Of a stretch of 64,000 nt of DNA, positions 8,740 to 29,784 are shown piece by piece. Position numbers and translations under genes: made by a program. Origin of the DNA: Acidobacteriota bacterium. GTDB lineage: Bacteria > Acidobacteriota > UBA4820. Each line of letters begins with the position of its first letter. The stretch's first letter is position 1. Under the pieces are notes generated by a model that was not told the DNA's origin, made no database searches, and saw only the letters and a list, made by a program, of their open reading frames with translations. Location of the stretch: contig JAKQCT010000014.1 of the NCBI GenBank assembly GCA_029559035.1, positions 11,520 to 75,519 of the forward strand, given 5' to 3'.

Positions 8740-10710
8740 ATGAGGAAGAGAATTCTGCTTCTCATTTCCGTTACGCTCCTGGCATTCTCGGGCGTATCGG
8801 CACAGACGAGCCAGTCCGGCCTTGAACAGACGCTCGCCGGGATAACCGCGGAAAAATACCCGGGATCCCCCGCCGTCATAGTTTTGGACGAAACGAAGGT
8901 GGATGTCGAAGATTCGGGGCTTTCCCATGTAAACCGCAGGATGGTGGTGAAGGTCCTCAACGAGGAGGGATGCCTGAGGTATTCCACCTACAGGCTGGAT
9001 TACGACCCGGCTTCCTCGTTCGCCGAGATAAGGTCGATCGAGACGATAAGGGACGGCAAGAGGGAGAAGCTTCCCGCAGGCAGCATCCTCGACCTGCCCC
9101 AGCCCCAGATGATGATCTACTGGGGCCCCAGGATGAAGCTGGCTTCCATCCCGAGGCTCAACCCGGGAGACGCCGTGGAGATCAACACCTACTCCAAGGG
9201 CTTCGTCATCGCGTACCTTACCGCCGGAGAGGCGGCGCGGGACGACGAGAGGTACATCCCCCCCATGAGAGGCCATTATTATGACGTGGTGCTCTTCCAG
9301 GGAGACCTGCCGATCGTCAAGAAAAGCTACGAACTGATCATGCCGAGGGACAAGTTCCTGAACGCCAGGGTATATCACGGCGAGGTCGGCTTCGAGACCT
9401 CCTACGACAAGGAGAAGGTGAGATACCTCTGGTCGAAAGAGAACGTCTCTCCCATCGAGGAAGAACCTAGAATGGTCGAACCCACCGATGTCGCAACAAA
9501 AGTGGTGCTCGCCACTGCGGAAGACTGGCCCGCGAAGTCCAGATGGTTCTACGAGGTGAACGAGAACGCCAAGGCGTTCGAATGGGACGGCGACATCAAG
9601 AAAAAAGTGGACGAGCTGACCTCCGGCCTCGGGACCGACGACGAAAAGCGGAAGGCGCTGCTGGCTTGGGTCGCGAGGGAGATCCGCTATTCCGGGATAT
9701 CCATGGGCAAGGGCGAAGGGTACACCCTTCATCCGGGCACGATGACGTTCAACGACAGGGCGGGCGTCTGCAAGGACATCGCAGGGATGCTCATCACGAT
9801 GCTTAGGTGCGCCGGATACACCACCTATCCCGCCATGACCATGGCCGGCGCCAAGGTCGAGGACGTTCCTGCCGACCAGTTCAACCACTGCGTCGTAGCG
9901 GTCAAGCTCGGGCCAGGGCAGTACAAGCTCTACGACCCCACCTGGTGCCCCTTCAGCCGGGAGGTGTGGTCTTCCGCGGAAAAGCCGCAGAACTATGTCA
10001 TCGGGACTCCCGAGGGCGAAGTTCTCATGGAGACACCTCTAGCTCCTCCTGAGGACAATTTCATCAAGATCGTTTCAACGGGAAGGCTTGATTCCGACGG
10101 AAATCTCGCTGGCAGGATGCACATCACCGGGGGAGCCTACAGCGAAACGAACCTGGTCTGGGCCGTCACTTCTACGGACAAGAACGAGGTGAGGCACGTT
10201 TTCGAGGAGTGGATCCGCAGGATCGCACCCCAGGCGGAACTGGTCTCCTTCGCCAACGAAGATCCCGTGGACGTGGACAAGCCGTTCTTCATCACCCTTG
10301 ATTACAGGGTCCCGGGTTACGCCATCAAGGCCGGCAGGGAACTCCTGTTCAAGTCTCCCGCTGCGCAGAACATCCTTTCGAACAGGCGCCTTACCGACTT
10401 CGTGGCCGCCGTCGAGGGCGACAAGAGGGAACACGACATATACCTCAGGTCCACCAGGAAGTTCATCTTCGAAGAAAAGATCGAGCTTCCCGCCCTCAGG
10501 AAGAATACCGATGCCAACCATCCCGACCCGGTAGACGGCCCTGCCGCGGCTTTCGACGCGAAGGCTTCCTCGTCGGGCAAGTTCTTCGAGCTCAAGGAAA
10601 CATTCTCCGTGAAGAAAAAAATAGTCCCGGCCTCGGATTACGGAAACCTGAAGGAGGCCTACGAAGCAATGAAGGACTTCGGATCCCGCTATTACAGGGC
10701 GGCGTACTAG
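8740..10710 (+). CDS. Secreted DUF3857 and transglutaminase-like (Cys-protease core) domain protein
   Basis: It has a signal peptide (MRKRILLLISVTLLAFSGVSAQ). The transglutaminase core motif NDRAGVCKDIAGMLITMLRCAGY contains the catalytic Cys, and the downstream FNHCVVAV...YDPTW region contains the His and Asp. Confidence 0.7.
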   Translation: MRKRILLLISVTLLAFSGVSAQTSQSGLEQTLAGITAEKYPGSPAVIVLDETKVDVEDSGLSHVNRRMVVKVLNEEGCLRYSTYRLDYDPASSFAEIRSIETIRDGKREKLPAGSILDLPQPQMMIYWGPRMKLASIPRLNPGDAVEINTYSKGFVIAYLTAGEAARDDERYIPPMRGHYYDVVLFQGDLPIVKKSYELIMPRDKFLNARVYHGEVGFETSYDKEKVRYLWSKENVSPIEEEPRMVEPTDVATKVVLATAEDWPAKSRWFYEVNENAKAFEWDGDIKKKVDELTSGLGTDDEKRKALLAWVAREIRYSGISMGKGEGYTLHPGTMTFNDRAGVCKDIAGMLITMLRCAGYTTYPAMTMAGAKVEDVPADQFNHCVVAVKLGPGQYKLYDPTWCPFSREVWSSAEKPQNYVIGTPEGEVLMETPLAPPEDNFIKIVSTGRLDSDGNLAGRMHITGGAYSETNLVWAVTSTDKNEVRHVFEEWIRRIAPQAELVSFANEDPVDVDKPFFITLDYRVPGYAIKAGRELLFKSPAAQNILSNRRLTDFVAAVEGDKREHDIYLRSTRKFIFEEKIELPALRKNTDANHPDPVDGPAAAFDAKASSSGKFFELKETFSVKKKIVPASDYGNLKEAYEAMKDFGSRYYRAAY

Positions 10711-10719
10711 GAGGCGAAG

Positions 10720-12606
10720 ATGAAGAACAACGCTTTGAAAATAATCCTGCTTGTCCTGGCTGCTGCCCTCCTGAGCCTCTCTTTGTCGGCGCAGCCCGTT
10801 TACGGTTCAGCGCCCGGAGCGAGAGAGTATCCTGACGCCGACGTCCTGATCCTTTCGGAAAAGATATCCCTCACCCTCATGCCGGACGGCAGGATCGAGG
10901 AGAGCCGGCACAAGGTTGAAAAGGTCCTCACATACAACGGGATAGACACGATCGGCGACCCCAAGATCGCCTTCGACACGGCGACCCAGGCGCTGGCCAT
11001 TGACAAATGCACGACCTTCAGCCCGGACGGAAGGGTGACCGAGGCGCAGAAGAACAGCTTCACGGAGATGACGCCATTCGAGCTCGAGAAGTCCCCGGAC
11101 CACGTTTCGATAAGGCAGATGGTAGTCACGAAGGTGGGAATGGAACTGGGTTCGGTCGTGGAGTTCGGGTACACGGTAAAAGACACCAAGCCCTGGAGGA
11201 AATACCTGCAGGGAAAGATCCTCGTTCAGAACGAATACCCGACTCTGGTCAAGGAGATCACGATCAGGGTCCCCCGCGGGACCTCCCTGCTGTTGTCGGG
11301 AGGAGTCGCCGTGGAGCGGTCCGACGAATCGGACTTCACGGTGTACAGGGCCGCGCTCAGGGACCTTCCGGCGCTCAACTTCCACGAGTTCGTGAATCAC
11401 GAAGAGTACCTTCACCCCTGTCTTGTCTATTCCACCGCGCCCGGTTGGGCCGCGCAGGCGGCTCATCTCGGCACGATGTTCAGTGAAGCCGCGGGCAAAA
11501 GGTCCGGAGCGATGGAGAAAAAGGCCAAAGAGCTGACCGAGAAAAAGCTTTCCGACAGAGAAAAGGCCCTTTCGATCCACGATTTCGTGACGACGAAGAT
11601 GAGGGCGGTCGATTGGGGGCTTGACGCCTTCGACTATTCAGCCAGGGACGCGTCAAGGGTCTTCGAAACCAGCGGGGGACACAAAATGGACCTCGCCGTG
11701 CTCTTATCGGCGATGCTGGATTCTGTCGGGCTAAAAGCGGAACCATGGCTCGTGATGAACGCCCCGTTCGGCGATGAAGAAGCGAAGATCCCGGCTGTTT
11801 CGCTTTTCGACGATGTCGTCATGACGGTGGGTACCGGGACAGGGACCCTCTTTCTAGGCTCTGATGCTCCCGCTTCGTCGGCATCCCTCAGGGACTGGAC
11901 GGGGTCCAGGGCGCTGAAGATATCGTCTGCCGTATCAGGATTGTCGGTTTTTCCCGCTCTTTCCGAGGGCAATTCGGCGAAATGCGCTTTCTCGCTCGAA
12001 CCCCTGGATGGCGCGGTGGTGCGGGGGACAGGTTCTGTCCTGCTTACAGGAGGCTACGCGAATTACGAATCCGCGAGGACCGGGATCGAAGGAGAGATAA
12101 TCCCATACGTGAAGGGTGCCCTCCCGGACGCGGCCGATATAAAAGTCACCGCCAGGAACATCTCGGCCGACCACCTCGACGCGGAAGTGGAATTCACCGT
12201 TGACCTGAAGAAAGCCGCAGGGAAGACGGGTTTGCATGCCGTCCTGAACACGGGCCTTCCCGGGGCGTCCATCGTGAACTGCAACCATCTTGCGGGCAGG
12301 GAAAAACGAACTTCGCCGATGATCCTCTCGATGACCGGAAATGAAAGCTACGAGATAAGGATGAAGCTCCCCGACTGTTTTGCCGGAGCCGGCAACAGGC
12401 TCGTGTCTTTCAGTCACGACACGCCCGCGCTGAAAGCGTCGCAGGATTTCACCGAAGGGGAAGGAAAGGTCACAGTCAGCTACTCCGTTTCGACTGACCG
12501 GGAGATCATCTCCGCCGGCGACTACGGGAAAGCCAGGCAGGCCGCGCTATCTCTTCTGACGGAGCCGGCTAGGAAGCTGGTCCTCGAGGAGAAAAAAAAG
12601 AAGTAG
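10720..12606 (+). CDS. Secreted DUF3857/DUF3858-family partner protein lacking the catalytic core
   Basis: It has a signal peptide (MKNNALKIILLVLAAALLSLSLSAQ). Its size and composition are like the preceding gene, but it has no Cys-His-Asp core. This is the typical paired arrangement of the family. Confidence 0.55.
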   Translation: MKNNALKIILLVLAAALLSLSLSAQPVYGSAPGAREYPDADVLILSEKISLTLMPDGRIEESRHKVEKVLTYNGIDTIGDPKIAFDTATQALAIDKCTTFSPDGRVTEAQKNSFTEMTPFELEKSPDHVSIRQMVVTKVGMELGSVVEFGYTVKDTKPWRKYLQGKILVQNEYPTLVKEITIRVPRGTSLLLSGGVAVERSDESDFTVYRAALRDLPALNFHEFVNHEEYLHPCLVYSTAPGWAAQAAHLGTMFSEAAGKRSGAMEKKAKELTEKKLSDREKALSIHDFVTTKMRAVDWGLDAFDYSARDASRVFETSGGHKMDLAVLLSAMLDSVGLKAEPWLVMNAPFGDEEAKIPAVSLFDDVVMTVGTGTGTLFLGSDAPASSASLRDWTGSRALKISSAVSGLSVFPALSEGNSAKCAFSLEPLDGAVVRGTGSVLLTGGYANYESARTGIEGEIIPYVKGALPDAADIKVTARNISADHLDAEVEFTVDLKKAAGKTGLHAVLNTGLPGASIVNCNHLAGREKRTSPMILSMTGNESYEIRMKLPDCFAGAGNRLVSFSHDTPALKASQDFTEGEGKVTVSYSVSTDREIISAGDYGKARQAALSLLTEPARKLVLEEKKKK

Positions 12607-16590: not shown

Positions 16591-19500
16591 ATGGACCTGA
16601 GGAACTCTCTTGCGGCGTTCGTTCCGAGGACGGTATGGCCCCTCGTGGGCGGCGCCGGGAACGGATCGAGGAAAAGCGGATCGGTACTTTTCGCGGACCT
16701 GGCGGGCTTCACCAGGCTTACCGACAGCCTCGCGAGCATCGGAAAAGAGGGCGCAGAGGAGCTCACCAGGATACTCAACGAATTCTTCTCGTCCATGATC
16801 AAGATAGTCCACGAGGACGGAGGCGACGTCCTCAGGTTCGGCGGCGACGCGATGACGATCTTCATTCCGTCGGGTCCCGGCGAGGCGCTGAAGACTGCCC
16901 TGAGGCTGCAGGCCGAAACGGCGAAGTACGGGGCGGTGGAGACGAGGGCGGGAGTTTTCGCGCTCGGGATGAAAATAGGCGTTTCATGCGGCGACACCGT
17001 GTTCTCGATAGTGGGCGACGGGTCCGTGGGGTTCGACTATTTCGCGGCGGGAAGCGCGCTGGACCTGTCGGCGGAGTGCGAACACCGGGCGGGCCAGGGC
17101 AATATCGTCGTCTGCCCGAGGGCGTCCGAACAAGTCGATTTCAAGGGCCTCAGGACCGTCGCTCTCGAAGGCGGGTTCACACTGGTGGAGGGGCCGGAGA
17201 AAGAAGCGCCGCTGGAAAATGGCCCCGCGCGTTCGGAAGAACTCCGGCCTCCCTCTGAACAGGCGCTCTCGGAGTTCCTTCCGTTCTACATAAAGGACAA
17301 GCTGGAAACGATCGAGTCGCTCCTGGTAGGCGAGCACAGGCGCACGACCGTTCTCTTCCTGAGCTTCAAGGCGACGGATTACGAACACGACCCGTCGGCG
17401 GTGGAAACGGCGCGAGTCGTATACAGGGAGGCGGCCAGGCTCGTAAAGAAGTACGGGGGCTTCATAAACAAGATAGACATGGGCGACAAGGGGAGCAAGG
17501 TCCTGGCCATCTTCGGGAGCCCTCTTGCCGTGGAGCGCCAGGAAGAGATGGGGTGCAGGTGCGCGCTCGACATAGTCTCGAGCCCGGAGCTTTCGGGAAT
17601 AAACGAGAACATCAGGATCGGTCTCACCGTGTCCAGCGTTTTTTCGGCATACGTGGGTTGTCCCGAGAGGCGCGAGTACACGGTCATGGGCAACGGGATA
17701 AATCTGGCTGCGAGGCTGATGGCGGCCTGCGCCCCCGGGTCCGTGCTCGCTTCCGAAGAGGTGTACGAAAAGGCATCGTCGGCGATCGAGTTCGACGTCC
17801 TTCCGCCCATAAACGTCAAGGGCAAGACGGAGAAAGTGGCTGTCTTCGCGCCCACGAGGAAGACCCGGGGGGCGTCCGAGGCATCGGGCTGTTTCGTGGG
17901 GAGAAAGAAGGAACTTTCAGAAGCGCTTGAAGCTTTGAGGACGGGATCAAGCTCGCCGGGCATCGCTGTCACGGGAGCGGCCGGCGTGGGGAAGAGCCTG
18001 TTCCTTTACAGCCTGAAAGACAGGTTGCATGAGGAAGGACTGGAGTGCATCGTCACGAACCTGGCGTCGTACGACCGTGACAAGTACATGGGCGCCTGGC
18101 GGGGGATCATCCTCCATTGTCTCGGTGCCGGGGATGGCGGAAGCGCCCCCGTGCGGGTGGATGCGATCCTCTCCCAGATGAACGAGGAGGACAGGGAGTA
18201 CCTTCCTCTTTTCAACGACATCCTCAACATCGAAGTTCCCGAGAACGCCTCCACGAAAGCGCTTTCGTCGAAAGACAGGAAGGACGTATTCTTCGCCATA
18301 ATCTCCAGGCTCATCCTAAGAAACACCGCGGACGCTCCTCATCGGATCTTCATTGATCACATGGATTACGCAGACCCGAGCTCGGTCGAGTTCCTGGGAG
18401 AGATCGCGACCGACCTCAAGGGGACGCAGTTGAAGATAGCCTTCACTCTCAGGGATTCTGCCTCCCAGCTGCTCAAGGATGCCGCCGAAGGGTTCGGGAC
18501 GCTCCAGCTCGGCCCTTTCAGCGAAGAAGAGGTCAGGTCATTCCTTCTCGACGTAGCCGGATTCGCTCCGCCGACCGAAACATTCGTTTCTTTCCTTCTG
18601 AAGAAGACAGGGGGGAACCCGAAATTCCTGGAAGAGGTCCTCCAGATAATGACGAGGGAACAGCTGGCCTTCAAGGGGCCGTCATCTCTGCTCGAGGTGG
18701 ACGAGGACCACCTTTCGTCAGCGAGCTTTCCCGACACTCTGCAGGGCCTTTTCCTCTCCAGAGTGGAAAGCCTTCCTGAGACCGAAAGGCAGATCCTCAA
18801 AACTGCCTCTATACTCGGCCCTTCCTTCTCGATCCATTCGCTCAGCTCCATTCTGGAAAAACCGGCCGTCGACGTCGCGGACGAAATATCGGCCATGGAA
18901 AGCTCCGGGTTGATAAAGATGGACACTTGGGGCGAGCGGCCGTATGCCTCGTTCACCGACAACCTGCTGAGGGACGCGATCTACGATTCACTGAATTTCC
19001 AGATCAGGAGGGAGATGCACAGAAAGGTGGCAGAATCGCTTGAATCGTTGGGCAGCGAGGAGCCGAGAATAAACCCCGTGCTGGCAAGGCATTTTGAATT
19101 TGCGGGAGAAGAGGAGAAAGCTCTCGGGTATCTCTGGAAATCCGCTGAATTTTCGAGGTCCTTCTACGATAACAGGTCGGCTTTCGATTTTCTCGGAAGG
19201 TTCGTGGCCATCTCGGAAAAGAGGGGAAAGACGCCCTCGGCCGACCGGCAATTCCTTGACGCTCTGATGTATTACGCGGACGTCCAGCAGGAACTCGGAA
19301 GGATACAGGAGGCAGACCTTCTATACAAGAGGATCCTGGACGAGATAAAGGAAGTAAGCCAGGACACGGTGAAGGCCACTTCGAGACTTGCCGACAACAA
19401 GAGGAGGACGGGGGCGGTCAAGGAATCTCTCGAACTATTCGACAAGGCCCTCGACGGAGCTAAACAGCTCAAGGATGAAGCCTTGCAGTGCAGGATCTTC

Positions 19501-20760
19501 CTCGATTCGGGAGTACCCCTTGCGATGACCGGCAAGATGGGAAAAGCGATGGACCATTTCCAGCGGGCGGAGAACCTGGCGGCGAAGATCGGGGATTTTC
19601 CATCCCTCGTTTACGCCCTGATGAACAGGGGACTGGTCGAGTATTTCAAGGGAAAGCTGGAGGGCGCGAAAAGCCTCCTGCTGAAAGCAAGGGAGGTCGC
19701 GAAAGAGCACGACCTCAAATCATACCTCGCACTCATAACCGTCAACCTGGCACAGGTGCATTTCGAGATGGGAGAGTATGAAAAGGCTCTTGCGATCTGC
19801 AGGGAGGCGGTGGAGGTTTCCAGGCAGTTCGGCTACAGGAACCACCTGGTCCTCGCCATGGCGAACCAGGCTTTGTACGAAACGATGCTCTGTGAGTGGG
19901 ATGACGCCGGCAGGTCCGTCGAGAAAGCGCTTACTCTCGCGAGGCATTACGAAATGGCGTATCCCATGGCGATCAACCTTCACACCAAGTCCCTGATACT
20001 CTTCGGCGAGGGATGCTTCACCGAGGCCGTCAAGATGCAGCTGTCGGCTCTCGATATCTACATGGCGAACAATCAGACGAGCGAAGCTCTCGGCTGCCTG
20101 AGCGAAATAGCTTTCATTTCAAATTTCCTGAGGATGCCTGAACTGATAAACACTACGCTGGAAAAATTCATCCCGGGGCTGCAGAGCGAGTTGCAGAACG
20201 TTACCAGGACTTGGACGATTGGGTTCACCGCGCACCAGGCTTTCCATAAATATATAACCGGGGAGGCGGACCTTTACGACTCAGTGGAAAGCATGGAGAA
20301 CATACTGGAAAGAGCGAGGGAAAGCGGCATCCTCTGGCTCGTCGCGGATGTCGGGAAGGTCCTCATAAATCTCCATCAATCGGATGGGAACCATGCGAAG
20401 GCCGCCGAGACCGGCATGGATCTTTTCCCGCTCCTTTCGACACATTTCTGTCCGCTGATCCTGCCCCGGTTCATGATCTCGCTTGCCGAGTCGCTTCTCG
20501 AAACCGACGGGAGGGAAGACCTTTCCTCGGTACTTGACAGCCTCAAGACCTACGATAAATACCTGGAAAAAGGCCCCTTCGGCCTTGAATACTGCCTGCT
20601 CAGGAAAAAGCTGGCCGAGAAGGATGGTGAAGATCCCGCCCCGTTCACTGAAAGAGGCCGGAGACTGGCGCGGCTGATGATCGAATCGGAAATGGATGAA
20701 GAGGTGAGAGAAGCGCTGATGAAGCTTCCCGCCTTCGCCAAATTCGGCGCGGGAACATAA
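16591..20760 (+). CDS. Multidomain signalling protein with tandem class-III adenylate/guanylate cyclase (CHD) domains, a P-loop NTPase (AAA/NB-ARC-like) and a TPR/MalT-like repeat region
   Basis: CHD1 starts at VLFADLAGFTRLTD...FGGDAMTIF. CHD2 starts at TVLFLSFKATDY and includes YTVMGNGINLAARLM. The Walker A motif is VTGAAGVGKS. The C-terminal region of about 700 aa is helical repeats. Confidence 0.8.
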   Translation: MDLRNSLAAFVPRTVWPLVGGAGNGSRKSGSVLFADLAGFTRLTDSLASIGKEGAEELTRILNEFFSSMIKIVHEDGGDVLRFGGDAMTIFIPSGPGEALKTALRLQAETAKYGAVETRAGVFALGMKIGVSCGDTVFSIVGDGSVGFDYFAAGSALDLSAECEHRAGQGNIVVCPRASEQVDFKGLRTVALEGGFTLVEGPEKEAPLENGPARSEELRPPSEQALSEFLPFYIKDKLETIESLLVGEHRRTTVLFLSFKATDYEHDPSAVETARVVYREAARLVKKYGGFINKIDMGDKGSKVLAIFGSPLAVERQEEMGCRCALDIVSSPELSGINENIRIGLTVSSVFSAYVGCPERREYTVMGNGINLAARLMAACAPGSVLASEEVYEKASSAIEFDVLPPINVKGKTEKVAVFAPTRKTRGASEASGCFVGRKKELSEALEALRTGSSSPGIAVTGAAGVGKSLFLYSLKDRLHEEGLECIVTNLASYDRDKYMGAWRGIILHCLGAGDGGSAPVRVDAILSQMNEEDREYLPLFNDILNIEVPENASTKALSSKDRKDVFFAIISRLILRNTADAPHRIFIDHMDYADPSSVEFLGEIATDLKGTQLKIAFTLRDSASQLLKDAAEGFGTLQLGPFSEEEVRSFLLDVAGFAPPTETFVSFLLKKTGGNPKFLEEVLQIMTREQLAFKGPSSLLEVDEDHLSSASFPDTLQGLFLSRVESLPETERQILKTASILGPSFSIHSLSSILEKPAVDVADEISAMESSGLIKMDTWGERPYASFTDNLLRDAIYDSLNFQIRREMHRKVAESLESLGSEEPRINPVLARHFEFAGEEEKALGYLWKSAEFSRSFYDNRSAFDFLGRFVAISEKRGKTPSADRQFLDALMYYADVQQELGRIQEADLLYKRILDEIKEVSQDTVKATSRLADNKRRTGAVKESLELFDKALDGAKQLKDEALQCRIFLDSGVPLAMTGKMGKAMDHFQRAENLAAKIGDFPSLVYALMNRGLVEYFKGKLEGAKSLLLKAREVAKEHDLKSYLALITVNLAQVHFEMGEYEKALAICREAVEVSRQFGYRNHLVLAMANQALYETMLCEWDDAGRSVEKALTLARHYEMAYPMAINLHTKSLILFGEGCFTEAVKMQLSALDIYMANNQTSEALGCLSEIAFISNFLRMPELINTTLEKFIPGLQSELQNVTRTWTIGFTAHQAFHKYITGEADLYDSVESMENILERARESGILWLVADVGKVLINLHQSDGNHAKAAETGMDLFPLLSTHFCPLILPRFMISLAESLLETDGREDLSSVLDSLKTYDKYLEKGPFGLEYCLLRKKLAEKDGEDPAPFTERGRRLARLMIESEMDEEVREALMKLPAFAKFGAGT

Positions 20761-20781: not shown

Positions 20782-20812
20782 AAAAAAAAAGGCGGGGGCA
20801 TGCTCCCCCGCC
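20782..20812 (-). terminator. Rho-independent terminator for giant gene B. On the minus strand the hairpin GGCGGGGG-CATG-CCCCCGCC is followed by U9.
   Basis: An A9 run at 20782-20790 and a perfect GC-rich inverted repeat at 20791-20812 lie 24 nt downstream of the stop at 20836. This could also act weakly for the convergent plus-strand cyclase gene. Confidence 0.7.
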
Positions 20813-20835
20813 CGTATATCGCAGAAAAATCCGGG

Positions 20836-23800
20836 TCACCATTTCCAGACAGTGCTCTGGCTCCCTCCGTCGGGATTGACGATGTTCAGAGTGACCGGCA
20901 TACCCTTCGGAACTTTCGCCTTGAGGGCCGGCCCGCCTTTTATGACGATCCTTCCGCTGTTCTTCCACCTGACATTGGTCCACGGGTCGCCGTTTATATA
21001 GACCGACACGCCCGGCTGGAGGTTGGCGCCTGAAACGACGAACCTGAAGGGGTCTCCCTTTTTGGAGACCGATGTTATCACTGGAGCCCTGACGACCGAC
21101 ACGACGGACTGCGCGCTCGTCTCCTTTCCGGAGCTGTCGACGGCGGTTGCAGAAACCACATGAGTCCCAAGCCCGGAAGCTCCGCTGTTCCACGACCATA
21201 TGAAGGGGAAAGCGGAGACCGTCGCCTGATGGGCGCCGTCGAGGGCGAACGAAACCGATTCGATCTTCACGTCGTCGACTGCGTTGGCCGTGACGTTGAC
21301 CGTTCCGCTGACGACCGAACCGTCCGAAGGCGATTCGAAAGAAACCATCGGAGGCGTGTCCGCGGCGACAAGCAGCACGTCTTTCAAAATCCCGCTCCTC
21401 CCGTCGGGGTTGATAATCTTCACATCACGGAAACCGGGGGCGCTTGAACCTGAAACGCTTATCGTAGCGAAGAAAACCCTGTTGTCATAACGCTGTGATC
21501 CGACGACGGAAATGGATTGGTCGAAAACCAGCGTCGCTCCTTCATCGAAATTCTTCCCGGTGATGGCGATGTTCACCGCTGTCCCGACAGTTACTTTCGA
21601 GGGGGCAATGTTTGATATGACTGGGGAAAGGGGAGCAGAGGAACAGTCGAACGTGCCGGCCTGGTAAAGCCCTGTCGAGATCTCTTCGTTCCATACGTCC
21701 AGAGGCCGGAGATCGTCGCCGTCCAGGATCTTGAGGCCCGAGACCATGAATTTGCCGCTGAACTGCCCGCAATGAACTCCCCCGAGGTCGAAGGGCAGGT
21801 CGAAGGATTTCGTTCCCTGAGAATCCGCTTCCAGGCTGGCAGATGAATGCGACACGAAGTTGCCTCTTGAGTCGTAGAGGTCGGCCGCGACCGTGTGGTA
21901 CCCGGCCGAGGGAAGGGCCGCTGAACAGGAGAATACGATCGAGTCGTATTTGCCGTCGCCATCGGAATCCGACGGGAAGTCTGCGAAGGCTCCGGTGAAA
22001 AGCCTGGAGGTTCCCAGTACGTTCATCGTTTCGAACTCGACCCGTGTGAATCCCGCGCCGTTGAAGGTACCCGTCGCCTGGATGAAAACTTCGTAGGACC
22101 CCTGGGCGTCTGGAGCGGAAAGAAGCCCGCTGAAGAAGCCACCTTTTTCATCAAGAGCGACCGTCCTGAGCAGCGTTCCATTCTTGTCGTAAAGAAACGC
22201 CTGGACGGACTGGGGAGTTACAAGGCTCCAGTCCCCCTTCTTGTCGACTCTCACAATCGTGGTTTCCCCGGGAAGAAGGTTCTGGCTGGTAAGGTAGCCG
22301 GAGATCCCGAAGATCGAGTTGTCTATCACGACGGCGCTGAACGAAACTCCCGAAGGGCCTGGAAGGACTTTCAGCGAACAATTTCCCGGCGCGGGAGCGG
22401 CTTTGACGAAGAGGCCGTCCCGAATGAGGCTTTCCGCACCCGCAGGATCGACGAAACTGAATTCGGCGGAGCCCTGCGTCAGGTTTATCACTATGGCGAT
22501 CCCGTCGCATTTGGAAACGGTGAAGGGGTAACTCATCTCGCTTCTCGCAAGGAGAGAACCAGCGTTGGTCGTCATCGCCGTGGATGTGTGGCCGACGGTG
22601 CCCCATCCCACTCCTCCCACGGGAGCTTCCGGGCGGCGCGCCTCGATCTTGCCCTCCCCGGACAAAAGGCCGAAAATGTCTTCGGCCGATCCCGGGCTGC
22701 CAAGCTCCCAATGATCGTAGTTGAAGAGATGGCCCGGACCGCTGTCGAGAGTCAAGGCAGGATAAATGACGCAATCCTCGCCGAGGCATGCTATCCTTCT
22801 GACGCTGAAGACCGATCCCGTCGAAACAACTCCGTCGTTGTTGTCCGTGTTCCACCATCCACCGGTACCTGCAACCGCGTGAACGTCCAACGCTCCGAAA
22901 TCGGGGTAGACCTCGTTGAAGTACCTTATTATCGAATTAGGCCCCAGGAGAGAGCTTCTTCCGAGCCTCGCGTTGTAATCTGCGCCGCTGTTGGGAACTC
23001 CGAGAAGATACGCCTTTTCCATCTTGCGCACGACCGGGTCTCCGGAATGCGGCCCGCTTCCGAGCGCCCTCGCGACGAGCCCTCCCATGTCGTGGGTGAC
23101 GAGGATATAGGGAGGCATGCCTGAAGCGCATAGCGACGACATGTCCTGGCTGACCTGGTCCAGGACCTCCGAGACCCTTAGGCTCCAGGAGCCGCTCCAC
23201 CAGTTGTAATTGGGGGTGAAGGAGATCCTTCCCAGGGACCTCGCGTAATTGTCGAAATGCCTGTAATAGTCGGCGTCGGAGCCGTCCGAAGCGTACCATT
23301 TGGAGTAGCAGTCGAAAATTCCGTGAAGCATTACCATGGGAGGAGGGAGAGTCAGATCCGCAGCGTTGTGCGTGTCGCACTTGACGGCCGCCGTCCGGGG
23401 CGGGATTGTCAATGTCTTCACGATCCGCTTTTGCGAGGGAGCGGCACATCCATATGAAAGCAGTTCGGCGTCGTAAAGTATGTGGTCCGTGTAATTGATG
23501 ATCGCGGATAGTGAGTAGTTCCCCGCAGGGATCGTTCCGAAAGAGTAGCTTCCGTTGACAAGATCCGTCGTGTATACGCTGCCTGAAGCTCCCGAAGCCG
23601 TGACAATGCCCGTTACTCCATCGCCGTTGAGATGGCAAAGAGCCCCGGATTCTTCGTCCCTGATCCCCGCGCGCCCGGATAGCGTTCCGTTCCCCGTAAG
23701 GCAGTCGACGCTCACGGCGTATACCATTTCGCCACTGCACCGGTTCGCGTCGACCGCAGAGACGTAAAAGGTGAACTTGCCCGGTTCTTCCGGCGTCCCG

Positions 23801-24639
23801 GCGAGAATCCCTCCGCTGCTGAAAGAAAGGCCAGGAGGAAGATCTCCCCTTGTCAAGGAATAGGCGTAGGGGGGATACCCTCCGGTGGCTGTTATCCTCT
23901 GAGAATAAGGCTCTCCGAGGACCGCGTCGGGAAGGTCGGACGGTTCTAACATTATCACGGGGCACTGCCGCCTGACCGTGAGCAGTACCTCCGTTCCGTT
24001 GGAGCAGGGGTAAGGGGAGGAAGAATCTTCCACATACACGTAAACCTGCCATTCGCCTTCTTCCGTGGGAGTGCCGGAGACCACGCCCGATGAAGTCATC
24101 GAGATCCCGGGAGGCCAGCCCCATGAAGGCTCGAGGGGAAGTGAATCGAAGAAAGAATAAGGAGGAGTGCCTCCGCTTGCCGAAAAGGATTGATGGTAAT
24201 ATGATCCGACATAGGCGTCGGGAAGGGATTCGGGGGCTATCATCAGAGAAGAACACGGGTCCTCGATCGTGAGCGTGTAGTTCCTGGAGCCCGTGGTGTA
24301 GCAGTAATAGTCGAAAGCGGAAACCTCGAAATTGTATGTCCCCCCGGAATATGGAGTTCCCGATAGGAGCCCGCTGTAGCTGTCCAGGCTGAAACCGTAC
24401 GGTAGGGAGCCGGAAGAGACGGAGAAGGAGTAGCTTCCCATGCCGCCCGTCGCTGAAATGGTCGCATTGTAAGGGACATAAACCTCTCCGTTCGGAAGAG
24501 AAGAGGGAGATACGACTATCGGATCGGCACATGACTGGGCGAAAGCGTGCCCGCAGGCCGCGAGGCATAGAACAAAGACGATCGCCGAGACGATGCACGC
24601 TTCAGGACGCTTTTCTTCAACAAACAGTTTTTCTTTCAT
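20836..24639 (-). CDS. Giant secreted multidomain protein B (about 1267 aa): signal peptide, three Cys-bounded He_PIG-like putative Ig repeats, Lipase_2-like alpha/beta-hydrolase core with Asp at the nucleophile elbow, Ig-like and IPT-like domains, and a conserved IPT-like C-terminal module
   Basis: The internal ATG at 24639, with a GGAGG RBS, gives MKEKLFVEEKRPEACIVSAIVFVLCLAACGHAFA as a signal peptide. The 44 aa upstream in the track ORF are non-protein-like. The protein is paralogous to gene A across the hydrolase and C-terminal regions. Confidence 0.8.
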   Translation of the reverse strand: MKEKLFVEEKRPEACIVSAIVFVLCLAACGHAFAQSCADPIVVSPSSLPNGEVYVPYNATISATGGMGSYSFSVSSGSLPYGFSLDSYSGLLSGTPYSGGTYNFEVSAFDYYCYTTGSRNYTLTIEDPCSSLMIAPESLPDAYVGSYYHQSFSASGGTPPYSFFDSLPLEPSWGWPPGISMTSSGVVSGTPTEEGEWQVYVYVEDSSSPYPCSNGTEVLLTVRRQCPVIMLEPSDLPDAVLGEPYSQRITATGGYPPYAYSLTRGDLPPGLSFSSGGILAGTPEEPGKFTFYVSAVDANRCSGEMVYAVSVDCLTGNGTLSGRAGIRDEESGALCHLNGDGVTGIVTASGASGSVYTTDLVNGSYSFGTIPAGNYSLSAIINYTDHILYDAELLSYGCAAPSQKRIVKTLTIPPRTAAVKCDTHNAADLTLPPPMVMLHGIFDCYSKWYASDGSDADYYRHFDNYARSLGRISFTPNYNWWSGSWSLRVSEVLDQVSQDMSSLCASGMPPYILVTHDMGGLVARALGSGPHSGDPVVRKMEKAYLLGVPNSGADYNARLGRSSLLGPNSIIRYFNEVYPDFGALDVHAVAGTGGWWNTDNNDGVVSTGSVFSVRRIACLGEDCVIYPALTLDSGPGHLFNYDHWELGSPGSAEDIFGLLSGEGKIEARRPEAPVGGVGWGTVGHTSTAMTTNAGSLLARSEMSYPFTVSKCDGIAIVINLTQGSAEFSFVDPAGAESLIRDGLFVKAAPAPGNCSLKVLPGPSGVSFSAVVIDNSIFGISGYLTSQNLLPGETTIVRVDKKGDWSLVTPQSVQAFLYDKNGTLLRTVALDEKGGFFSGLLSAPDAQGSYEVFIQATGTFNGAGFTRVEFETMNVLGTSRLFTGAFADFPSDSDGDGKYDSIVFSCSAALPSAGYHTVAADLYDSRGNFVSHSSASLEADSQGTKSFDLPFDLGGVHCGQFSGKFMVSGLKILDGDDLRPLDVWNEEISTGLYQAGTFDCSSAPLSPVISNIAPSKVTVGTAVNIAITGKNFDEGATLVFDQSISVVGSQRYDNRVFFATISVSGSSAPGFRDVKIINPDGRSGILKDVLLVAADTPPMVSFESPSDGSVVSGTVNVTANAVDDVKIESVSFALDGAHQATVSAFPFIWSWNSGASGLGTHVVSATAVDSSGKETSAQSVVSVVRAPVITSVSKKGDPFRFVVSGANLQPGVSVYINGDPWTNVRWKNSGRIVIKGGPALKAKVPKGMPVTLNIVNPDGGSQSTVWKW

Positions 24640-24723
24640 TTCCGCCTCCCGCAAAAGGGTTCTTGCTGAAACTAAGCTAGCACCGCGGCTGATATCTGTC
24701 AATAGCGAAAACGCTGAAGCGGT

Positions 24724-24756
24724 AAAAAAAGGCGGGGACCTCAGGTCCCCGCCTTT
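24724..24756 (-). terminator. Rho-independent terminator for giant gene A. On the minus strand the hairpin GGCGGGGACC-TGA-GGTCCCCGCC is followed by U7.
   Basis: An A7 run at 24724-24730 and an inverted repeat at 24731-24753 lie 23 nt downstream of the stop at 24776. This terminator separates the two paralogues into distinct transcription units. Confidence 0.7.
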
Positions 24757-24775
24757 CGAACCGAATGTCAAACGG

Positions 24776-27700
24776 CTACCATTGCCATACCAGGACCTGT
24801 TGACCTCCGTCGTCGTTGACGAACGTGAAAGTAGTGGGGGTTCCTTTTGGCACCTTTGATTTCAGGAGGCTGCCCCCCTTTATGACTATCTTCCCGCTGC
24901 TCTTCCACGCGACGTTGGTCCACATCTCGCCGTTGATGTAAACCGTTATGTCCTCCTGGAGGTTGCTTCCGAGCGTGACGATGCGGAAGGGGCTTCCCTT
25001 CTTGCTCATCATTGAAACCACGGGCGGCTGGACTACGCTCACCACGGCTTGGGTCGAGGCCTGGTGACCGGCGGAATCGGTCGCCGTCGCCTTTACCGTA
25101 TGAGTGCCCACGGCCGAAGCCGAAGTGTCCCAGTACCAGATGAACGGGAAAGAAGCCGCTACTTTCTGCAGAGCCCCGTCGAGCTCGAAGGAGACGGAAG
25201 CGACCTTGACATCGTCCGAAGCGTTCGCGATTATGTCAAGGTACCCACCGACCACGGAGCCGTTCTCCAGGCCGTCGAAACTTACCTCGGGCGCGGAATC
25301 CTCTTCGGAAACGAGCACCTCGTGCAATACGCCGTCGCTGCCGTCGGGATTCGTCACCCTGACGTTCACGTGGCCGACAGCCGAAGCCGGTATGGATATG
25401 GTCGAATATATGACGCGGTTCTCAAAATTTTCCTTGTGGAGGACGCTTATCAGTTTGCCGACCCCGGCGTCGAAGGTGACGATGGCGTTCTCGTCGAAGT
25501 TCCTGCCCACGATGGCCATGTTAGGTGTCGTTCCGGCGACGACACTGGAGGGAGTCACGTATAAAACCTGAGGCGCGGGCTCCGATGGATCGCAGCAGAA
25601 TTGCGAAGAAGAATAGCTCTGTGTCGAGACCTCCTGCCCCCACACATCCACGGCGCGAAGCGAATCGGCGTCAAGCACCCTTAGGCCCCCAACCTGAAGA
25701 GGAGAGGAGAGCTGGCTGCATTTCAGGTCTTTCAGGTCGAAGAGGAGAAGCGCCTGGCTGGAAGCCCTGCCTGCGGAAATGGAGGCCGTCGAATGCGAGA
25801 GGAAATTGCCGGACGAATCGAAGAGGTCCGCGGATACCACGAAATAGCCCTGCCCGCTGATCAGAACATCTGCGGAGAAGGCTAAACCGTCGTACTTGCC
25901 GTCGCCGTTGCCGTCCACCGGGGAGTCTGAGAACGTCCCCGTGAAATAGTGGGATGAGGGAAGCACGTTGAGCGTCTCGAACTCCACCCGCGTGAAAGGA
26001 TCTCCTCCGTATGTCCCTTCAGCTTTGACCACGATCTGATACGTGCCGGGGGACGAGGGGGCACCGAACTCGTGACTGAAATATCCGCCGTTGTCAGCGA
26101 GGTCTAAGGACTGGACGAGGTTGCCCGAGCCGTCGTACATGAAAGCTTTAACAGTGGAGGGCATTACAGCCGACCAGTCGCCGTCGCGGTCAGCCCTGAG
26201 GGTCGTCTTCACTCCTTCGCCGACGTATTCGCCGGTAAGATAAGCCTTTATCCCGAATATGCTGTTGTCAACGGCGGAGGCGTCGAAAGTCATCCCGGAC
26301 GCCCCGGGGTTCGCTCTCAGGATCCAGGTCCCCGGTTCGGGTGCGGGCTTTATGAAAGCGTTGTTGTCAAGATCGTGCTGGAACCCTGAGGGATCTATAA
26401 TCTTGAAACTACCCGATCCCGATGTCACGGTGACGAAAACCGCCATCCCGTCGCAGTTCGATACGGTGAAGGGGTAATCCTGGGAGGCTTCGCTTCTCAG
26501 GGAGGCAGAACCGGTCCCCATCGTCGCGGAGGACCTTCCCACCGTTCCCCATCCGACTCCGCCGACCGGCGCTTCAGGAATGCCTTTTTCATCCATCCGC
26601 CAGCGCGACCTTCCTGTCAGCAGGATGACATTCTCGAAGATCTCCTCCACGGATTCGGGAGAACCTAGCTCGTTGTGCCTGAAGCGGAAAACATGCTCGG
26701 CGCCGCTGTCAAGGCTCAGCGCGGGATAAGCGACGCAGTCTCCTCCCTTGCAAGCCACCCTGGTGATCGTGAAGGCCGAGCGGAGGGAGACCTTTCCGTC
26801 GTTGTTGTCCGTTCCCCACCAGCCCCTGTTACCGGCTATCGCGTACACGTCAAGGTTCCCGAAGTCGGGGTACGCGTCGTTGAAGTACCTGATTATGGAG
26901 TTGGGTCCCAGGAGGCCGTCCTTTCCCGAACGGGGATTGAAGTCGAAGCCGCTGTTGGGAGTTCCTATTATAAAGGCAGTCCTTATCTGCCTGACCGCCG
27001 GATCGTCCGAATAGATTGGGCTTCCAAGTATCCTGGCTATCAGGCCGCCCATGTCGTGCGCGACCAGGGTGAAGGGAGGGACTCCCTGATTGGTGAGCGA
27101 TGCCATGTCCCTATGAACCTGGTCAAGCACTTCCTCTGTCCTGGTGATCCATGAGCCGGCGTCTCCCCACCATTCGTAGTTGGGGGTGAAGGAAATTACG
27201 CCCTGCCTCCTGGCGTAGTTATCCCAGTAACTGTAAAAATCAGGGTCGGCGGGATCTCCTCCGTACCATTTTTCGTAACATCCGAACATACCATGGAGCA
27301 TGACGATCGGTTTCTCGAAGTCGACCATGGCCGAATTGTCTTCGTTGCAGGCCACATCCACGTACAGGGGGGGGGAAGAGACGCTCTTCACGATAACGCC
27401 GTTCAGCGGTGAGGGGCACCCCAATGCGAGGAGGCTGGCGTCATAGGGTATGTGGTCGGTGTAGCGGATCGTCGCCACGAGGCTGCATGGTCCGTATGGC
27501 AATTCTCCGAAATCGAAATACCCTCCCGATATGTCGGCGACATGAGTTCCGCCTTTCGAGTCGGTCGCGGTCACCGTTCCTGACACTCCCGGACCGTCGA
27601 GAATGTAATATTCCTCTCCCTCTTCGTCGGAAACTGTTATGAATCCGTCCAGAGCTCCTGTCGTCCCGTCGCATCCCACAGCTAAAGAGTATGTCCTGCT

Positions 27701-29599
27701 TCCGGAACACGCGGCCGAGTCCGTTGCGGTCACGGCGAAACTGTAGCTTCCCGAAACCGATGGAGTTCCGGTAATCGTACCGTCGTCTGCAAGCACGAGT
27801 CCTGAAGGAAGAGACCCGCCGGTCAAGGAAAAAGCATAAGGAGGCGTTCCTCCGGAGGCTGATATCTTTTGGCTGTATACGGTGCCGGGGATCGCCGTGG
27901 GAAGTGTTTCCGGGGAAAGAGTTATAGCGGGGCAGCTTCCGCCTCCGACCGAGAGCGCGTAAAGATTCGATCCTGCGCATCCGTCCTTGTCGTAGGCGTA
28001 AACAAGCAAAGGATAGTTTCCAGCGGAAACAGGGGTCCCGGACAGGATCCCGTCCTTAGACAGGGTGATGCCTTCGGGAGGAACGGTGTATCCGAGAGCG
28101 TATGTGTATGGCGATGCTCCTCCGGAAGCGGTTATGGCCTGGTAGTATTCAACGCCGGTCTGGGCTTGCGGAAGCACCGACGGAGAAAGAGTTATGGATG
28201 GACAGTATCCCGAACATTGCAGCTGAACGACTGCGGAAGTAGCGACGGGAGAGGCTCCGGAATCAGTCGCGGAAAAGGAAGGGGTCTCAACTTCAGCGTA
28301 TGAAGGGGCCGGCGATACAGCTGTCGCCTGGGCGGTCAGCGATGTTGAAAAAATGAAGGAGCACCCTGTTCCTATGCCGCCTGTCGTATTAAGCCTCATT
28401 ATCCACCAGTCGGAACCGTACGAAGCGGGATTGTACGAATCTCCGCCGACGATGTAGCCTCCGTCGGCAGTCTGCGCCGCGCTCTTCGCCAGGTCGTCCC
28501 CGGCACCCGCGTACCCTTTCTGCCAGGCTATGTTACCGAGGGAATCCAGCTTCACGATCCAGAAGTCGTTGTCTCCGGCTCCGATGGAATTCGATGAGCA
28601 CGCCATGATGAAACCGCCGTCCGTCGTCTGCCTTATGTCGTTCGTCTGATCATCCCCGGGTCCTCCGTATTTTTTCTGCCATGTGACCGCACCCGAGGCG
28701 TTCAATTTCAGCACCCAGCAGTCATAGTCATACTGTCCGCTGAAGGAATTGGAAAAACCGCCAACGATGTAACCTCCGTCGCTGGTCACCCGGAGGGAAG
28801 TGGAGACATCCTCGCCGGAATCGCCGTAAAAATATTCCCAGATAACGCTGCCCGCGGAATCGGTCCTGAACACCCATGCGTCCATCGGGCCGTTGGCGTA
28901 GTTCTCGCCCTTGTCCATGAGGCCGCTCGAACCCGCTACGACATAGCCTCCGTCCGAAGTCTGCCTTACCGCGGTGCAGGTCTCTGCGTCGGTCGAAGTG
29001 CCGTATGTCTTTTTCCAGGACAGCTCGCCCCCGGCGCCAAGCTTGAGGAGTAGAATGTCCGAGTTTCCCGCGCCGAAGCTCTCGGTGTCGCAGGCCACCA
29101 TGTAACCGCCGTCGGAGGTTTGAATTATCGAGGCAGAGCTGTCTCCGTTGACTCCTCCGTATGTTCTCTGCCACCCGATTATTCCCGCGGGATTGAGCTT
29201 TAAAACCCACACGTCGCTGGAACCCGCTCCGAAAGCGTATGTGAACCCCGCCAGCACGTAGCCCCCGTCCGAAGTCTGGATGACGCTCAAGGCTCCGGAA
29301 GGATATGTGCTCCCGTAGTACGCGTTCTGCCACGCGATCTCTCCTGCGGAATCAAGTTTTACCACCCAGACGCCTCCGGAAGACGCACTGAACGAATAAG
29401 TGGATCCGGCTGACAGAAAACCGCCGTCTGCTGTAGGTATGACCTCGGAGATCTCGTCATACCCGCTTCCGCCGTAAGTCCTCGACCAGGTCGTCTGCGC
29501 AGCCGTAGCGATGCCAGGTACCATGAACAATGCCAACAGAAGGGCTATCGCGGGCAGAAAATCTTTCCGTAAAACGTTGCAAGAGATTCTAGCTGACAT
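24776..29599 (-). CDS. Giant secreted multidomain protein A (1607 aa): signal peptide, seven ~50-aa propeller-like repeats, three He_PIG-like Ig repeats, Lipase_2-like alpha/beta-hydrolase core with Asp at the nucleophile elbow, IPT and Ig-like domains, and a conserved IPT-like C-terminal module
   Basis: The ATG at 29599 has a GGGAGGTG RBS. The signal peptide is LPAIALLLALFMVPGIATAAQ. The propeller repeats follow the pattern W..TYGG.G.D......QTSDGGY...G.T.SFGAG..D.W..KL...G. The hydrolase core reads PIVMLHGMFGCY...FTLVAHDMGGLIARILG. Confidence 0.8.
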   Translation of the reverse strand: MSARISCNVLRKDFLPAIALLLALFMVPGIATAAQTTWSRTYGGSGYDEISEVIPTADGGFLSAGSTYSFSASSGGVWVVKLDSAGEIAWQNAYYGSTYPSGALSVIQTSDGGYVLAGFTYAFGAGSSDVWVLKLNPAGIIGWQRTYGGVNGDSSASIIQTSDGGYMVACDTESFGAGNSDILLLKLGAGGELSWKKTYGTSTDAETCTAVRQTSDGGYVVAGSSGLMDKGENYANGPMDAWVFRTDSAGSVIWEYFYGDSGEDVSTSLRVTSDGGYIVGGFSNSFSGQYDYDCWVLKLNASGAVTWQKKYGGPGDDQTNDIRQTTDGGFIMACSSNSIGAGDNDFWIVKLDSLGNIAWQKGYAGAGDDLAKSAAQTADGGYIVGGDSYNPASYGSDWWIMRLNTTGGIGTGCSFIFSTSLTAQATAVSPAPSYAEVETPSFSATDSGASPVATSAVVQLQCSGYCPSITLSPSVLPQAQTGVEYYQAITASGGASPYTYALGYTVPPEGITLSKDGILSGTPVSAGNYPLLVYAYDKDGCAGSNLYALSVGGGSCPAITLSPETLPTAIPGTVYSQKISASGGTPPYAFSLTGGSLPSGLVLADDGTITGTPSVSGSYSFAVTATDSAACSGSRTYSLAVGCDGTTGALDGFITVSDEEGEEYYILDGPGVSGTVTATDSKGGTHVADISGGYFDFGELPYGPCSLVATIRYTDHIPYDASLLALGCPSPLNGVIVKSVSSPPLYVDVACNEDNSAMVDFEKPIVMLHGMFGCYEKWYGGDPADPDFYSYWDNYARRQGVISFTPNYEWWGDAGSWITRTEEVLDQVHRDMASLTNQGVPPFTLVAHDMGGLIARILGSPIYSDDPAVRQIRTAFIIGTPNSGFDFNPRSGKDGLLGPNSIIRYFNDAYPDFGNLDVYAIAGNRGWWGTDNNDGKVSLRSAFTITRVACKGGDCVAYPALSLDSGAEHVFRFRHNELGSPESVEEIFENVILLTGRSRWRMDEKGIPEAPVGGVGWGTVGRSSATMGTGSASLRSEASQDYPFTVSNCDGMAVFVTVTSGSGSFKIIDPSGFQHDLDNNAFIKPAPEPGTWILRANPGASGMTFDASAVDNSIFGIKAYLTGEYVGEGVKTTLRADRDGDWSAVMPSTVKAFMYDGSGNLVQSLDLADNGGYFSHEFGAPSSPGTYQIVVKAEGTYGGDPFTRVEFETLNVLPSSHYFTGTFSDSPVDGNGDGKYDGLAFSADVLISGQGYFVVSADLFDSSGNFLSHSTASISAGRASSQALLLFDLKDLKCSQLSSPLQVGGLRVLDADSLRAVDVWGQEVSTQSYSSSQFCCDPSEPAPQVLYVTPSSVVAGTTPNMAIVGRNFDENAIVTFDAGVGKLISVLHKENFENRVIYSTISIPASAVGHVNVRVTNPDGSDGVLHEVLVSEEDSAPEVSFDGLENGSVVGGYLDIIANASDDVKVASVSFELDGALQKVAASFPFIWYWDTSASAVGTHTVKATATDSAGHQASTQAVVSVVQPPVVSMMSKKGSPFRIVTLGSNLQEDITVYINGEMWTNVAWKSSGKIVIKGGSLLKSKVPKGTPTTFTFVNDDGGQQVLVWQW

Positions 29600-29784
29600 G
29601 GGCCACCTCCCTTTGCGTTAAAAAACTCCATTATATACTAAGCTCTGCGAAAGAGCTTGTCAAATCTGGCTCGCGGGCGAAAATAAATGATTTTCCCCGA
29701 ATCCTCGAACATGAAAAAGACAAGGGAATGATTCTCTTGGAATATAATAATTAATCAAATAATATCAATGTGATACCCCACATC

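Follow-up and report, generated by a model that had tools for sequence, protein, structure and literature searches.

The question raised by this locus is what two giant lipase-like proteins, both predicted to be exported, can do without a catalytic serine. The proteins are encoded by genes A and B, adjacent paralogues in a 64,000-nucleotide stretch (hereafter, the window) of contig JAKQCT010000014.1 from an Acidobacteriota bacterium (assembly GCA_029559035.1; positions 11,520 to 75,519, forward strand). We find that the serine at the nucleophile elbow of their alpha/beta-hydrolase (ABH) domain has been replaced by aspartate across the clade to which they belong, that this clade has a conserved motif of its own directly after the ABH domain, and that its loci share a single conserved neighbor, a convergent gene for a cyclase-STAND-tetratricopeptide repeat (TPR) protein. 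The reading that we favor, to which we give a probability of about 45%, is that A and B are lipase-derived exported proteins with a repurposed active-site pocket, which either binds a ligand or accommodates an intramolecular plug.

In A, the codon at the nucleophile elbow is GAC (window positions 27053 to 27055, minus strand, as are all features of A and B below) and encodes D849 within A-H-D-M-G-G, at a position occupied by Ser in relatives. B also has GAC (23089 to 23091), which encodes D517 within T-H-D-M-G-G. When the 20 closest cluster representatives are profile-aligned, 17 have Asp at this position and 2 have Gly, while the last is a fragment that cannot be aligned. A further 116, more distant, representatives keep Ser in the canonical G/A-H-S-x-G-G. 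At the codon level, Asp is encoded by 25 of the 26 Asp-clade genes in the loci that we fetched (GAC in 19 and GAT in 6) and Glu by the remaining one, and the Ser outgroup copies have AGC. The replacement of Ser by Asp spans the whole clade, A and B included. The Asp and the Ser groups alike conserve the HG motif, the acid (within N-D-G-x-V), and the His (within H-x-E-L-G), and so do the Gly variants; in alignment A1, the corresponding H18-G19, D183, and H224 are invariant or nearly so, and they are conserved among the cluster representatives. Because the nucleophilic Ser is replaced by Asp, A and B are not classical lipases or esterases and cannot act as serine hydrolases, and the active serine hydrolase implied by the initial annotation of this locus is not supported, for either copy or anywhere in the clade.

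Individual members of the Asp clade depart from the common elbow. The gene at locus L010 encodes A-Y-E-M-G-G (Glu, from GAG), that at L003 encodes A-D-D-M-G-G, and the representatives P0133 and P0134 have G-H-G-M-G-G and A-H-G-S-G-C, respectively. The residue before the nucleophile position may be H, Y, F, or D. A Gly codon (GGC) is a possible mutational intermediate between the AGC of the Ser relatives and GAC.

The second feature that sets this clade apart is the motif PEAPVGGVGWGT, which directly follows the ABH domain in A (26543 to 26578, residues 1008 to 1019) and is also present in B (22597 to 22632, residues 670 to 681). It corresponds to the conserved EAPVGGVGWGTVG segment of the initial annotation, which we indeed found in both proteins. 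The consensus, P-x-[AS]-P-x-G-x-x-x-W-G-T, is present in every Asp-clade member and is missing from Ser-type relatives that have the same cassette of domains. At 79 to 84% identity, no other part of the two paralogues is as well conserved as the motif. The ABH core, which is 59% identical between A and B (most other modules are 41 to 46% identical) and 73 to 75% identical between orthologues, is the best-conserved domain, and together with the motif it makes up the most conserved segments of these proteins.

The ABH domain extends from 26600 to 27343 in A (residues 753 to 1000) and from 22645 to 23373 in B (residues 423 to 665). In A, the HG motif is at 27290 to 27304, the acid D934 at 26798 to 26800, and the His H975 at 26675 to 26677; in B, the acid D602 is at 22834 to 22836 and the His H643 at 22711 to 22713. 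In a structural model of the core (predicted local distance difference test [pLDDT] score of 71.6), D98 lies between a strand (92 to 97) and a helix (100 to 107), which is the nucleophile elbow. In a longer model, of residues 640 to 1345 of A (706 residues; pLDDT of 82 and predicted template modeling [TM] score of 0.82), the ABH domain is preceded by one beta-sandwich and followed by three more. The core has the central sheet, the strand-turn-helix elbow, the acid after beta7, and the His after beta8 of the ABH superfamily. However, the family initially suggested for it is not supported. Of the proposed core of ~200 residues resembling lipase class 2, the lipase-like fold stands, but the domain is ~250 residues long and Pfam Lipase_2 (PF01674) did not match any of 13 family cores even at E ≤ 1; the A-x-S-x-G serine of that family is Asp in both A and B. 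No Pfam or NCBIfam model matches the core above its cut-off, and the best ones (generic Abhydrolase_1/6, DUF7379, and PGAP1) each fall below it.

The nearest folds are those of serine lipases and not of the Asp-nucleophile families. Foldseek matched the cassette model to BlEst2, a secreted lipase of Bacillus licheniformis (PDB 6WPX, propeptide form), with an E value of 4e-14, and BlEst2 has the same layout of an ABH domain followed by packed beta-sandwich domains. A PDB search with a single core sequence gave nothing meaningful. Only a profile of the cassette (A2) reached BlEst2, which it matched in three separate segments (E = 4e-5; no PDB sequence matched better at this level apart from the jelly roll named next), and the C-terminal jelly-roll domain of Tk-SP subtilisin (E = 3e-5). 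When 1.84 billion cluster representatives were searched exhaustively with a profile, only 142 matched the core, ~30 of them with the cassette end to end, and among 185,579 species genomes we found 11 loci, all of them in Acidobacteriota and mostly in Thermoanaerobaculia metagenome-assembled genomes (MAGs). A homology search with full-length A was swamped by delta-60 propeller proteins (2921 matches, of which only P0001 to P0004 are true full-length relatives) and was repeated with the cassette alone. The initial claim that no characterized protein has this architecture is supported. The result that had been named as its refutation, a core from a well-characterized family within a common architecture, was not obtained: the core has no family model above cut-off, and the architecture is rare. 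The family to which A and B belong is uncharacterized as well as rare, but it does not form a new category of protein, since an ABH domain of lipase type with beta domains behind it is a known kind.

The gene that faces B (16591 to 20760, plus strand) encodes a protein of 1389 residues in which two class III cyclase homology domains are combined with an AAA_16 STAND NTPase and with MalT-like TPRs. A convergent gene of this kind lies downstream in all 17 Asp-clade loci that have enough downstream DNA (L001, L002, L003, L005, L006, L007, L009, L012 to L017, L019 to L021, and L023). These loci represent 12 lineages at 90% cassette identity and 8 at 70%, and their cyclase proteins are 40 to 74% identical to the one in the window. 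The other flanking genes vary by lineage (ClpB and S1; a DEAD helicase and an acyl-CoA dehydrogenase; a TonB-dependent receptor; a solute-binding protein and an acetyltransferase). In the window, these neighbors serve housekeeping functions (ClpB, HtpX, and DegP to one side; ribosomal protein S1 and HflX to the other), and there are no secretion or anchoring partner genes around A and B. The "dedicated system" of the initial annotation is not borne out by such surroundings, and the coordinates given for it left out the single conserved partner. An intrinsic terminator (20790 to 20813, minus strand; a stem of 9 bp, 8 of them GC, and then T8) separates the convergent B and cyclase genes. This arrangement excludes their cotranscription, so the coupling between the exported-protein gene and the cyclase gene is genetic.

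At L011, which is the sole Ser-type locus with flanking sequence, there is no cyclase-STAND-TPR gene within ~7 kb downstream or 7.5 kb upstream, so the absence of this neighbor from the Ser type rests on one locus; a search with the Ser-clade alignment A3 gave one distant protein. L011 comes from the same MAG (BP9.bin43) as L005, on contigs JAJYCJ010000010 and JAJYCJ010000005, respectively. The L005 gene is of the Asp type (A-H-D-M-G-G) and has the cyclase neighbor, and the L011 gene, of the Ser type (~1990 residues, A-H-S-M-G-G), has neither the motif nor the neighbor.

In the cyclase protein itself, the first cyclase domain has the metal-binding Asp motifs (VLFADLAGFT and RFGGDAM), and the second, which reads VLFLSFKATD, looks degenerate. 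These motifs suggest that the protein is a class III cyclase of the pseudo-heterodimeric kind, in which there is a single active site. We found no helix-turn-helix or other output domain in the protein. PADLOC matched it only with the generic PycC cyclase and TPR models and gave no match for A or B, and a role in antiphage defense was dropped.

In the reading that we favor, A and B are modular paralogues, predicted to be exported, whose ~700-residue cassette is descended from BlEst2-type secreted serine lipases. The cassette runs from a beta-sandwich through the lipase-like ABH domain and a PPC-like jelly roll to two sandwiches resembling immunoglobulin (Ig) or macroglobulin (MG) domains, and it is followed by an IPT-Big_7-TIG stalk and preceded by variable binding modules (He_PIG in both proteins and a seven-bladed propeller in A). 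The former active site would be kept as a functional pocket without covalent serine catalysis. This pocket may bind a ligand, or it may be occupied by the clade-specific PxxPxGxxxWGT linker, much as the active site of BlEst2 is covered by the C-terminal propeptide of that enzyme. Attachment to a surface or polymer would be provided by the N-terminal modules and the stalk. The gene for the exported protein is coupled genetically to that for a cytoplasmic cyclase-STAND-TPR signaling protein. We favor a repurposed pocket because the nucleophile position can be Gly or Glu and the His before it varies, because the catalytic His and acid are conserved even where the nucleophile is Gly, because auxiliary residues of the known Asp-nucleophile families are missing, and because, in the relative closest in structure, the C-terminal domains of the protein itself cover the active site.

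Several observations count against this interpretation. Asp is kept through synonymous codon changes, which shows that Asp specifically is selected for and that Ser was not simply lost. The invariance of the His, the acid Asp, and HG at 35 to 40% identity would also be expected of an active Asp-His-Asp enzyme. The motif that would act as the plug is modeled at very low confidence (pLDDT of 26 to 29). Export of A and B is predicted from signal peptides that were judged by reading. The cyclase gene faces the exported-protein gene and so does not form an operon with it, and the functional meaning of their linkage is inferred.

The first two of these points bear directly on the strongest alternative, which we consider somewhat unlikely, namely, that A and B are true Asp-nucleophile hydrolases. 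Asp849 (Asp517 in B) would attack an electrophilic carbon, such as that of an epoxide or alkyl halide, and the resulting ester intermediate would be hydrolyzed by a His-activated water, a mechanism shared by haloalkane dehalogenases, epoxide hydrolases, and Cif, which is a secreted enzyme; this would be new extracellular chemistry on a lipase scaffold. Asp nucleophiles are established in ABH dehalogenases (D124 and D108) and epoxide hydrolases (D192) (PMC7034887). An Asp at the elbow that persists as either GAC or GAT, alongside the conserved HG motif, acid, and His in the most constrained domain of the protein, is what such an enzyme would be expected to show. Against a catalytic Asp are the Gly and Glu found at the same position and the variable residue before it. 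By reading, A and B also have no Trp after the nucleophile (D-M/T-G-G), HGMF or HGIF where HGxP would be expected, and a short, low-confidence insertion at the position of the cap, with no large cap bearing a Tyr pair. That the nearest folds are serine lipases is a further point against it. A more extensive proposal appears unlikely. It holds that the clade switched from a Ser to an Asp nucleophile and thereby gained an extracellular chemistry (epoxide opening or displacement of an alkyl leaving group), with PxxPxGxxxWGT as a lid or plug and with the production or activity of the protein tied to the cytoplasmic cyclase-STAND-TPR protein as a sensor, which together would make up an undescribed, Acidobacteriota-specific two-gene module.

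We regard it as quite improbable that the ABH domain is a mere structural hub of a pure adhesin or S-layer-like protein, with its residues kept for folding and the cyclase linkage a matter of residual synteny. Most of each protein does consist of arrays of Ig-like beta-sandwiches resembling those of the adhesins SiiE and Bap, and the Gly and Glu variants would be tolerated by a domain of this kind. In contrast, residual synteny fits poorly with a cyclase neighbor that persists in 8 lineages (at 70% identity) while the other flanking genes change, and a folding scaffold fits poorly with the invariance of the His, the acid Asp, and HG in a core that is more conserved than every Ig-like module. 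Finally, the initial interpretation, in which an active lipase or esterase core of lipase class 2 is combined with adhesin modules into a cell-surface enzyme-adhesin system, is very improbable: the lipase-like fold, the G-H-S-x-G-G of distant relatives, the signal peptides, and the He_PIG, Big_7, TIG, and propeller modules all suit it, but neither A, nor B, nor any close relative has a Ser at the elbow, Lipase_2 is unmatched, and partner genes for secretion or anchoring are absent.

A and B are adjacent genes on the minus strand, as initially annotated, and each has its own ribosome-binding site (RBS), signal peptide, and terminator, all of which we could locate in the sequence. Gene A (24776 to 29599) starts with ATG and encodes 1607 residues. 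A promoter-like TTGACA-17-TAGTAT lies upstream of it (29635 to 29663), and the RBS AAGGGAGG precedes its ATG. The terminator after A (24724 to 24753) reads GGCGGGGACC-TGA-GGTCCCCGCC, with a GC-rich stem of 10 bp followed by T7. Gene B (20836 to 24639; 3.8 kb, 1267 residues) is listed as an open reading frame from 20836 to 24771 with a TTG start. Since the 5' part of that open reading frame crosses the terminator of A, we place the real start at the ATG at 24639, which has a GGGAGG RBS 6 nucleotides ahead of it (24645 to 24650). The signal peptide of A (29501 to 29599, residues 1 to 33, by reading) ends in LLLALFMVPGIATA, with cleavage between ATA and AQ (GIATA-AQ), and that of B (24538 to 24639, also by reading) ends in VFVLCLAACGHAFA, followed by QSC (HAFA-QSC); both proteins are predicted to be exported via Sec. 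We had considered B as a lipoprotein, given an L-A-A-C that resembles a lipobox, and rejected this in favor of cleavage by signal peptidase I at AFA-QSC, since orthologues have A-x-A before QC and no lipobox. In NCBI, proteins identical or nearly identical to these bear the name "putative Ig domain-containing protein" [Acidobacteriota bacterium].

BLASTP aligns A and B at 49% identity across 1152 residues (E = 0), which is far beyond chance and agrees with the initial description of paralogues that are roughly half identical. Only A has the N-terminal propeller module (28355 to 29494, residues 36 to 415), and here too the initial count of seven repeats of ~50 residues was accurate: there are seven regular delta-60-type repeats of ~53 residues, with DGG[YF] at residues 58, 111, 163, 216, 274, 327, and 379. 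The delta-60 model TIGR02608 scores 48.2 bits on A, against a curated cut-off of 76.5, and thousands of homologues, several of them named delta-60 repeat protein by JGI, are matched through this module. Three He_PIG repeats had been proposed for each protein. This is correct for B (23707 to 24537), whereas A has two, bounded by Cys (27677 to 28204, residues 466 to 641); He_PIG (PF05345, cut-off 24) scores 95.4 bits over 3 stretches in B and 81.6 bits over 2 stretches in A.

The conserved cassette of A begins with the beta-sandwich that precedes the core (27344 to 27676, residues 642 to 752). After the ABH domain and the motif come three beta-sandwich domains (25565 to 26533, residues 1023 to 1345), of which the first is PPC/jelly-roll-like and which jointly resemble NttD (DUF4785) and arrays of MG domains. 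Foldseek also matched TEP1, C3, and CD109, but we rejected a thioester/alpha-2-macroglobulin reading because TM-scores were low, the likeness is that of beta-sandwich arrays in general, and A and B have, by reading, no CGEQ-type motif. In most relatives (P0131 to P0157 and loci L002 to L007), the second of these domains has an insertion, L-[YF]-D-D-G-x-H-x-D-G-x-x-G-D-G-x-[YF]-G, that resembles a calcium-binding loop and is shortened in A and B to LADNGGYFS and LDEKGGFFS, respectively. A ends with IPT-like, Big_7, and TIG-like domains (24779 to 25564, residues 1346 to 1607); in B, the three middle sandwiches and the IPT (CoaZ_rpt_PGGG), Big_7, and TIG domains together span 20839 to 22587. The Ig/IPT scaffolding and C-terminal module of the initial annotation are confirmed by He_PIG, Big_7, and TIG matches above the Pfam cut-offs: Big_7 (PF17957, cut-off 24.1) scores 42.9 and 49.7 bits, and TIG (PF01833, cut-off 20.9) scores 29.6 bits at the C terminus of B, with only E = 0.035 in A, on the IPT segment. 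Judging from the He_PIG, propeller, and Ig-like modules, a role in adhesion is plausible.

Most genomes have a single Asp-type gene, as in Thermoanaerobaculum aquaticum (locus L001), a cultured relative in which the cyclase gene is present as well, and the A and B tandem is found in the window and in the related metagenome contigs of L012 and L013. The order is ClpB-A-B-cyclase in the window versus ClpB-B-A-cyclase in L012 (6023 to 14818) and L013 (1054 to 9861), and orientation and flanking genes are alike despite this swap. A is orthologous along its full length to the 1605-residue genes of L012 and L013 (61 to 64% identity), while B-type copies evolve faster (~50%). Because A is orthologous over its whole length, we rejected a swap of N-terminal modules as the cause of the inverted order in favor of a swap in position, which possibly arose by duplication of the pair followed by differential loss. 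The intact tandem in L012 and L013, together with the full-length orthology of A, indicates that the duplication predates these lineages and that both copies have been kept intact, in agreement with the old, maintained duplication initially proposed.

The window has a second tandem pair of paralogues (8740 to 10710 and 10720 to 12606, both plus strand; 656 and 628 residues), each with DUF3857 followed by a transglutaminase-like core, and this pair also adjoins HflX in L012 and L013. Between 50001 and 54000, the GC content falls to 0.48 to 0.50, versus ~0.57 elsewhere, and the genes in this stretch are ordinary (a DHH/DHHA1 phosphoesterase at 50203 to 51237 and a Kdo transferase at 53135 to 54364). 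Rfam found no family at gathering score over the whole window, with no tRNA, rRNA, or riboswitch matches.

Acidobacteriota are abundant and poorly characterized, and their large exported proteins are mostly annotated merely as "Ig domain-containing." A and B belong to a rare and well-delimited family whose change from Ser to Asp left the His, the acid, and the oxyanion motif in place and is accompanied by a conserved motif that is also new and by a strict gene neighborhood. This makes the family a natural test of what follows from a change in an ABH active site, a pseudoenzyme or a new nucleophile. If the pocket is inactive, the family is also a warning for annotation, since proteins of this type should not be called lipases. 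The invariant pairing with a cyclase-STAND-TPR protein provides a way to approach the many multidomain cyclases that lack known inputs and outputs.

The known systems closest to A and B include the Ser-type members of the same family (e.g., P0150, P0151, P0155, P0157, and the L011 protein), which are multidomain, uncharacterized proteins of similar size whose cassette aligns with that of A and B end to end. Unlike A and B, they keep G/A-H-S-Q/M-G-G and do not have PxxPxGxxxWGT. NttD (lpg0956, DUF4785, PDB 4KH9), a protein of uncharacterized function that Legionella pneumophila secretes by the type II pathway (PMC6617341), has three domains that superpose on the sandwiches following the ABH domain of A (Foldseek E = 2.6e-12 over 350 columns; target-normalized TM-score of 0.48). 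In contrast to A and B, it has no ABH domain, and the Pfam model DUF4785_3rd gives only a weak match (E = 0.15). Neuroligins, EDS1/PAD4, and ABHD5, which are eukaryotic and unrelated in sequence to A and B, retain the ABH fold with the nucleophile lost or dispensable and have reused the pocket or surface. We know of none among them in which Ser is replaced by a conserved Asp with the His and acid intact. The Asp-nucleophile ABH enzymes (haloalkane dehalogenases, epoxide hydrolases, and Cif) share the elbow Asp, the His, and the acid with A and B, which differ from them in having no halide-binding Trp, HGxP, or cap Tyr pair and in belonging to a clade that tolerates Gly and Glu at the nucleophile position. 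BlEst2 is exported, as A and B are predicted to be, and is their remote homologue in three pieces; the title of the 6WPX deposit, as quoted in PMC10816834, describes its C-terminal domains as a propeptide that inhibits the lipase. However, BlEst2 is a serine lipase of 450 residues with S-Y-S-K-G-G at the elbow, whereas A and B have the elbow Asp, the PxxPxGxxxWGT motif, a sandwich ahead of the core, a third middle domain, an IPT-Big_7-TIG stalk, and N-terminal He_PIG and propeller modules.

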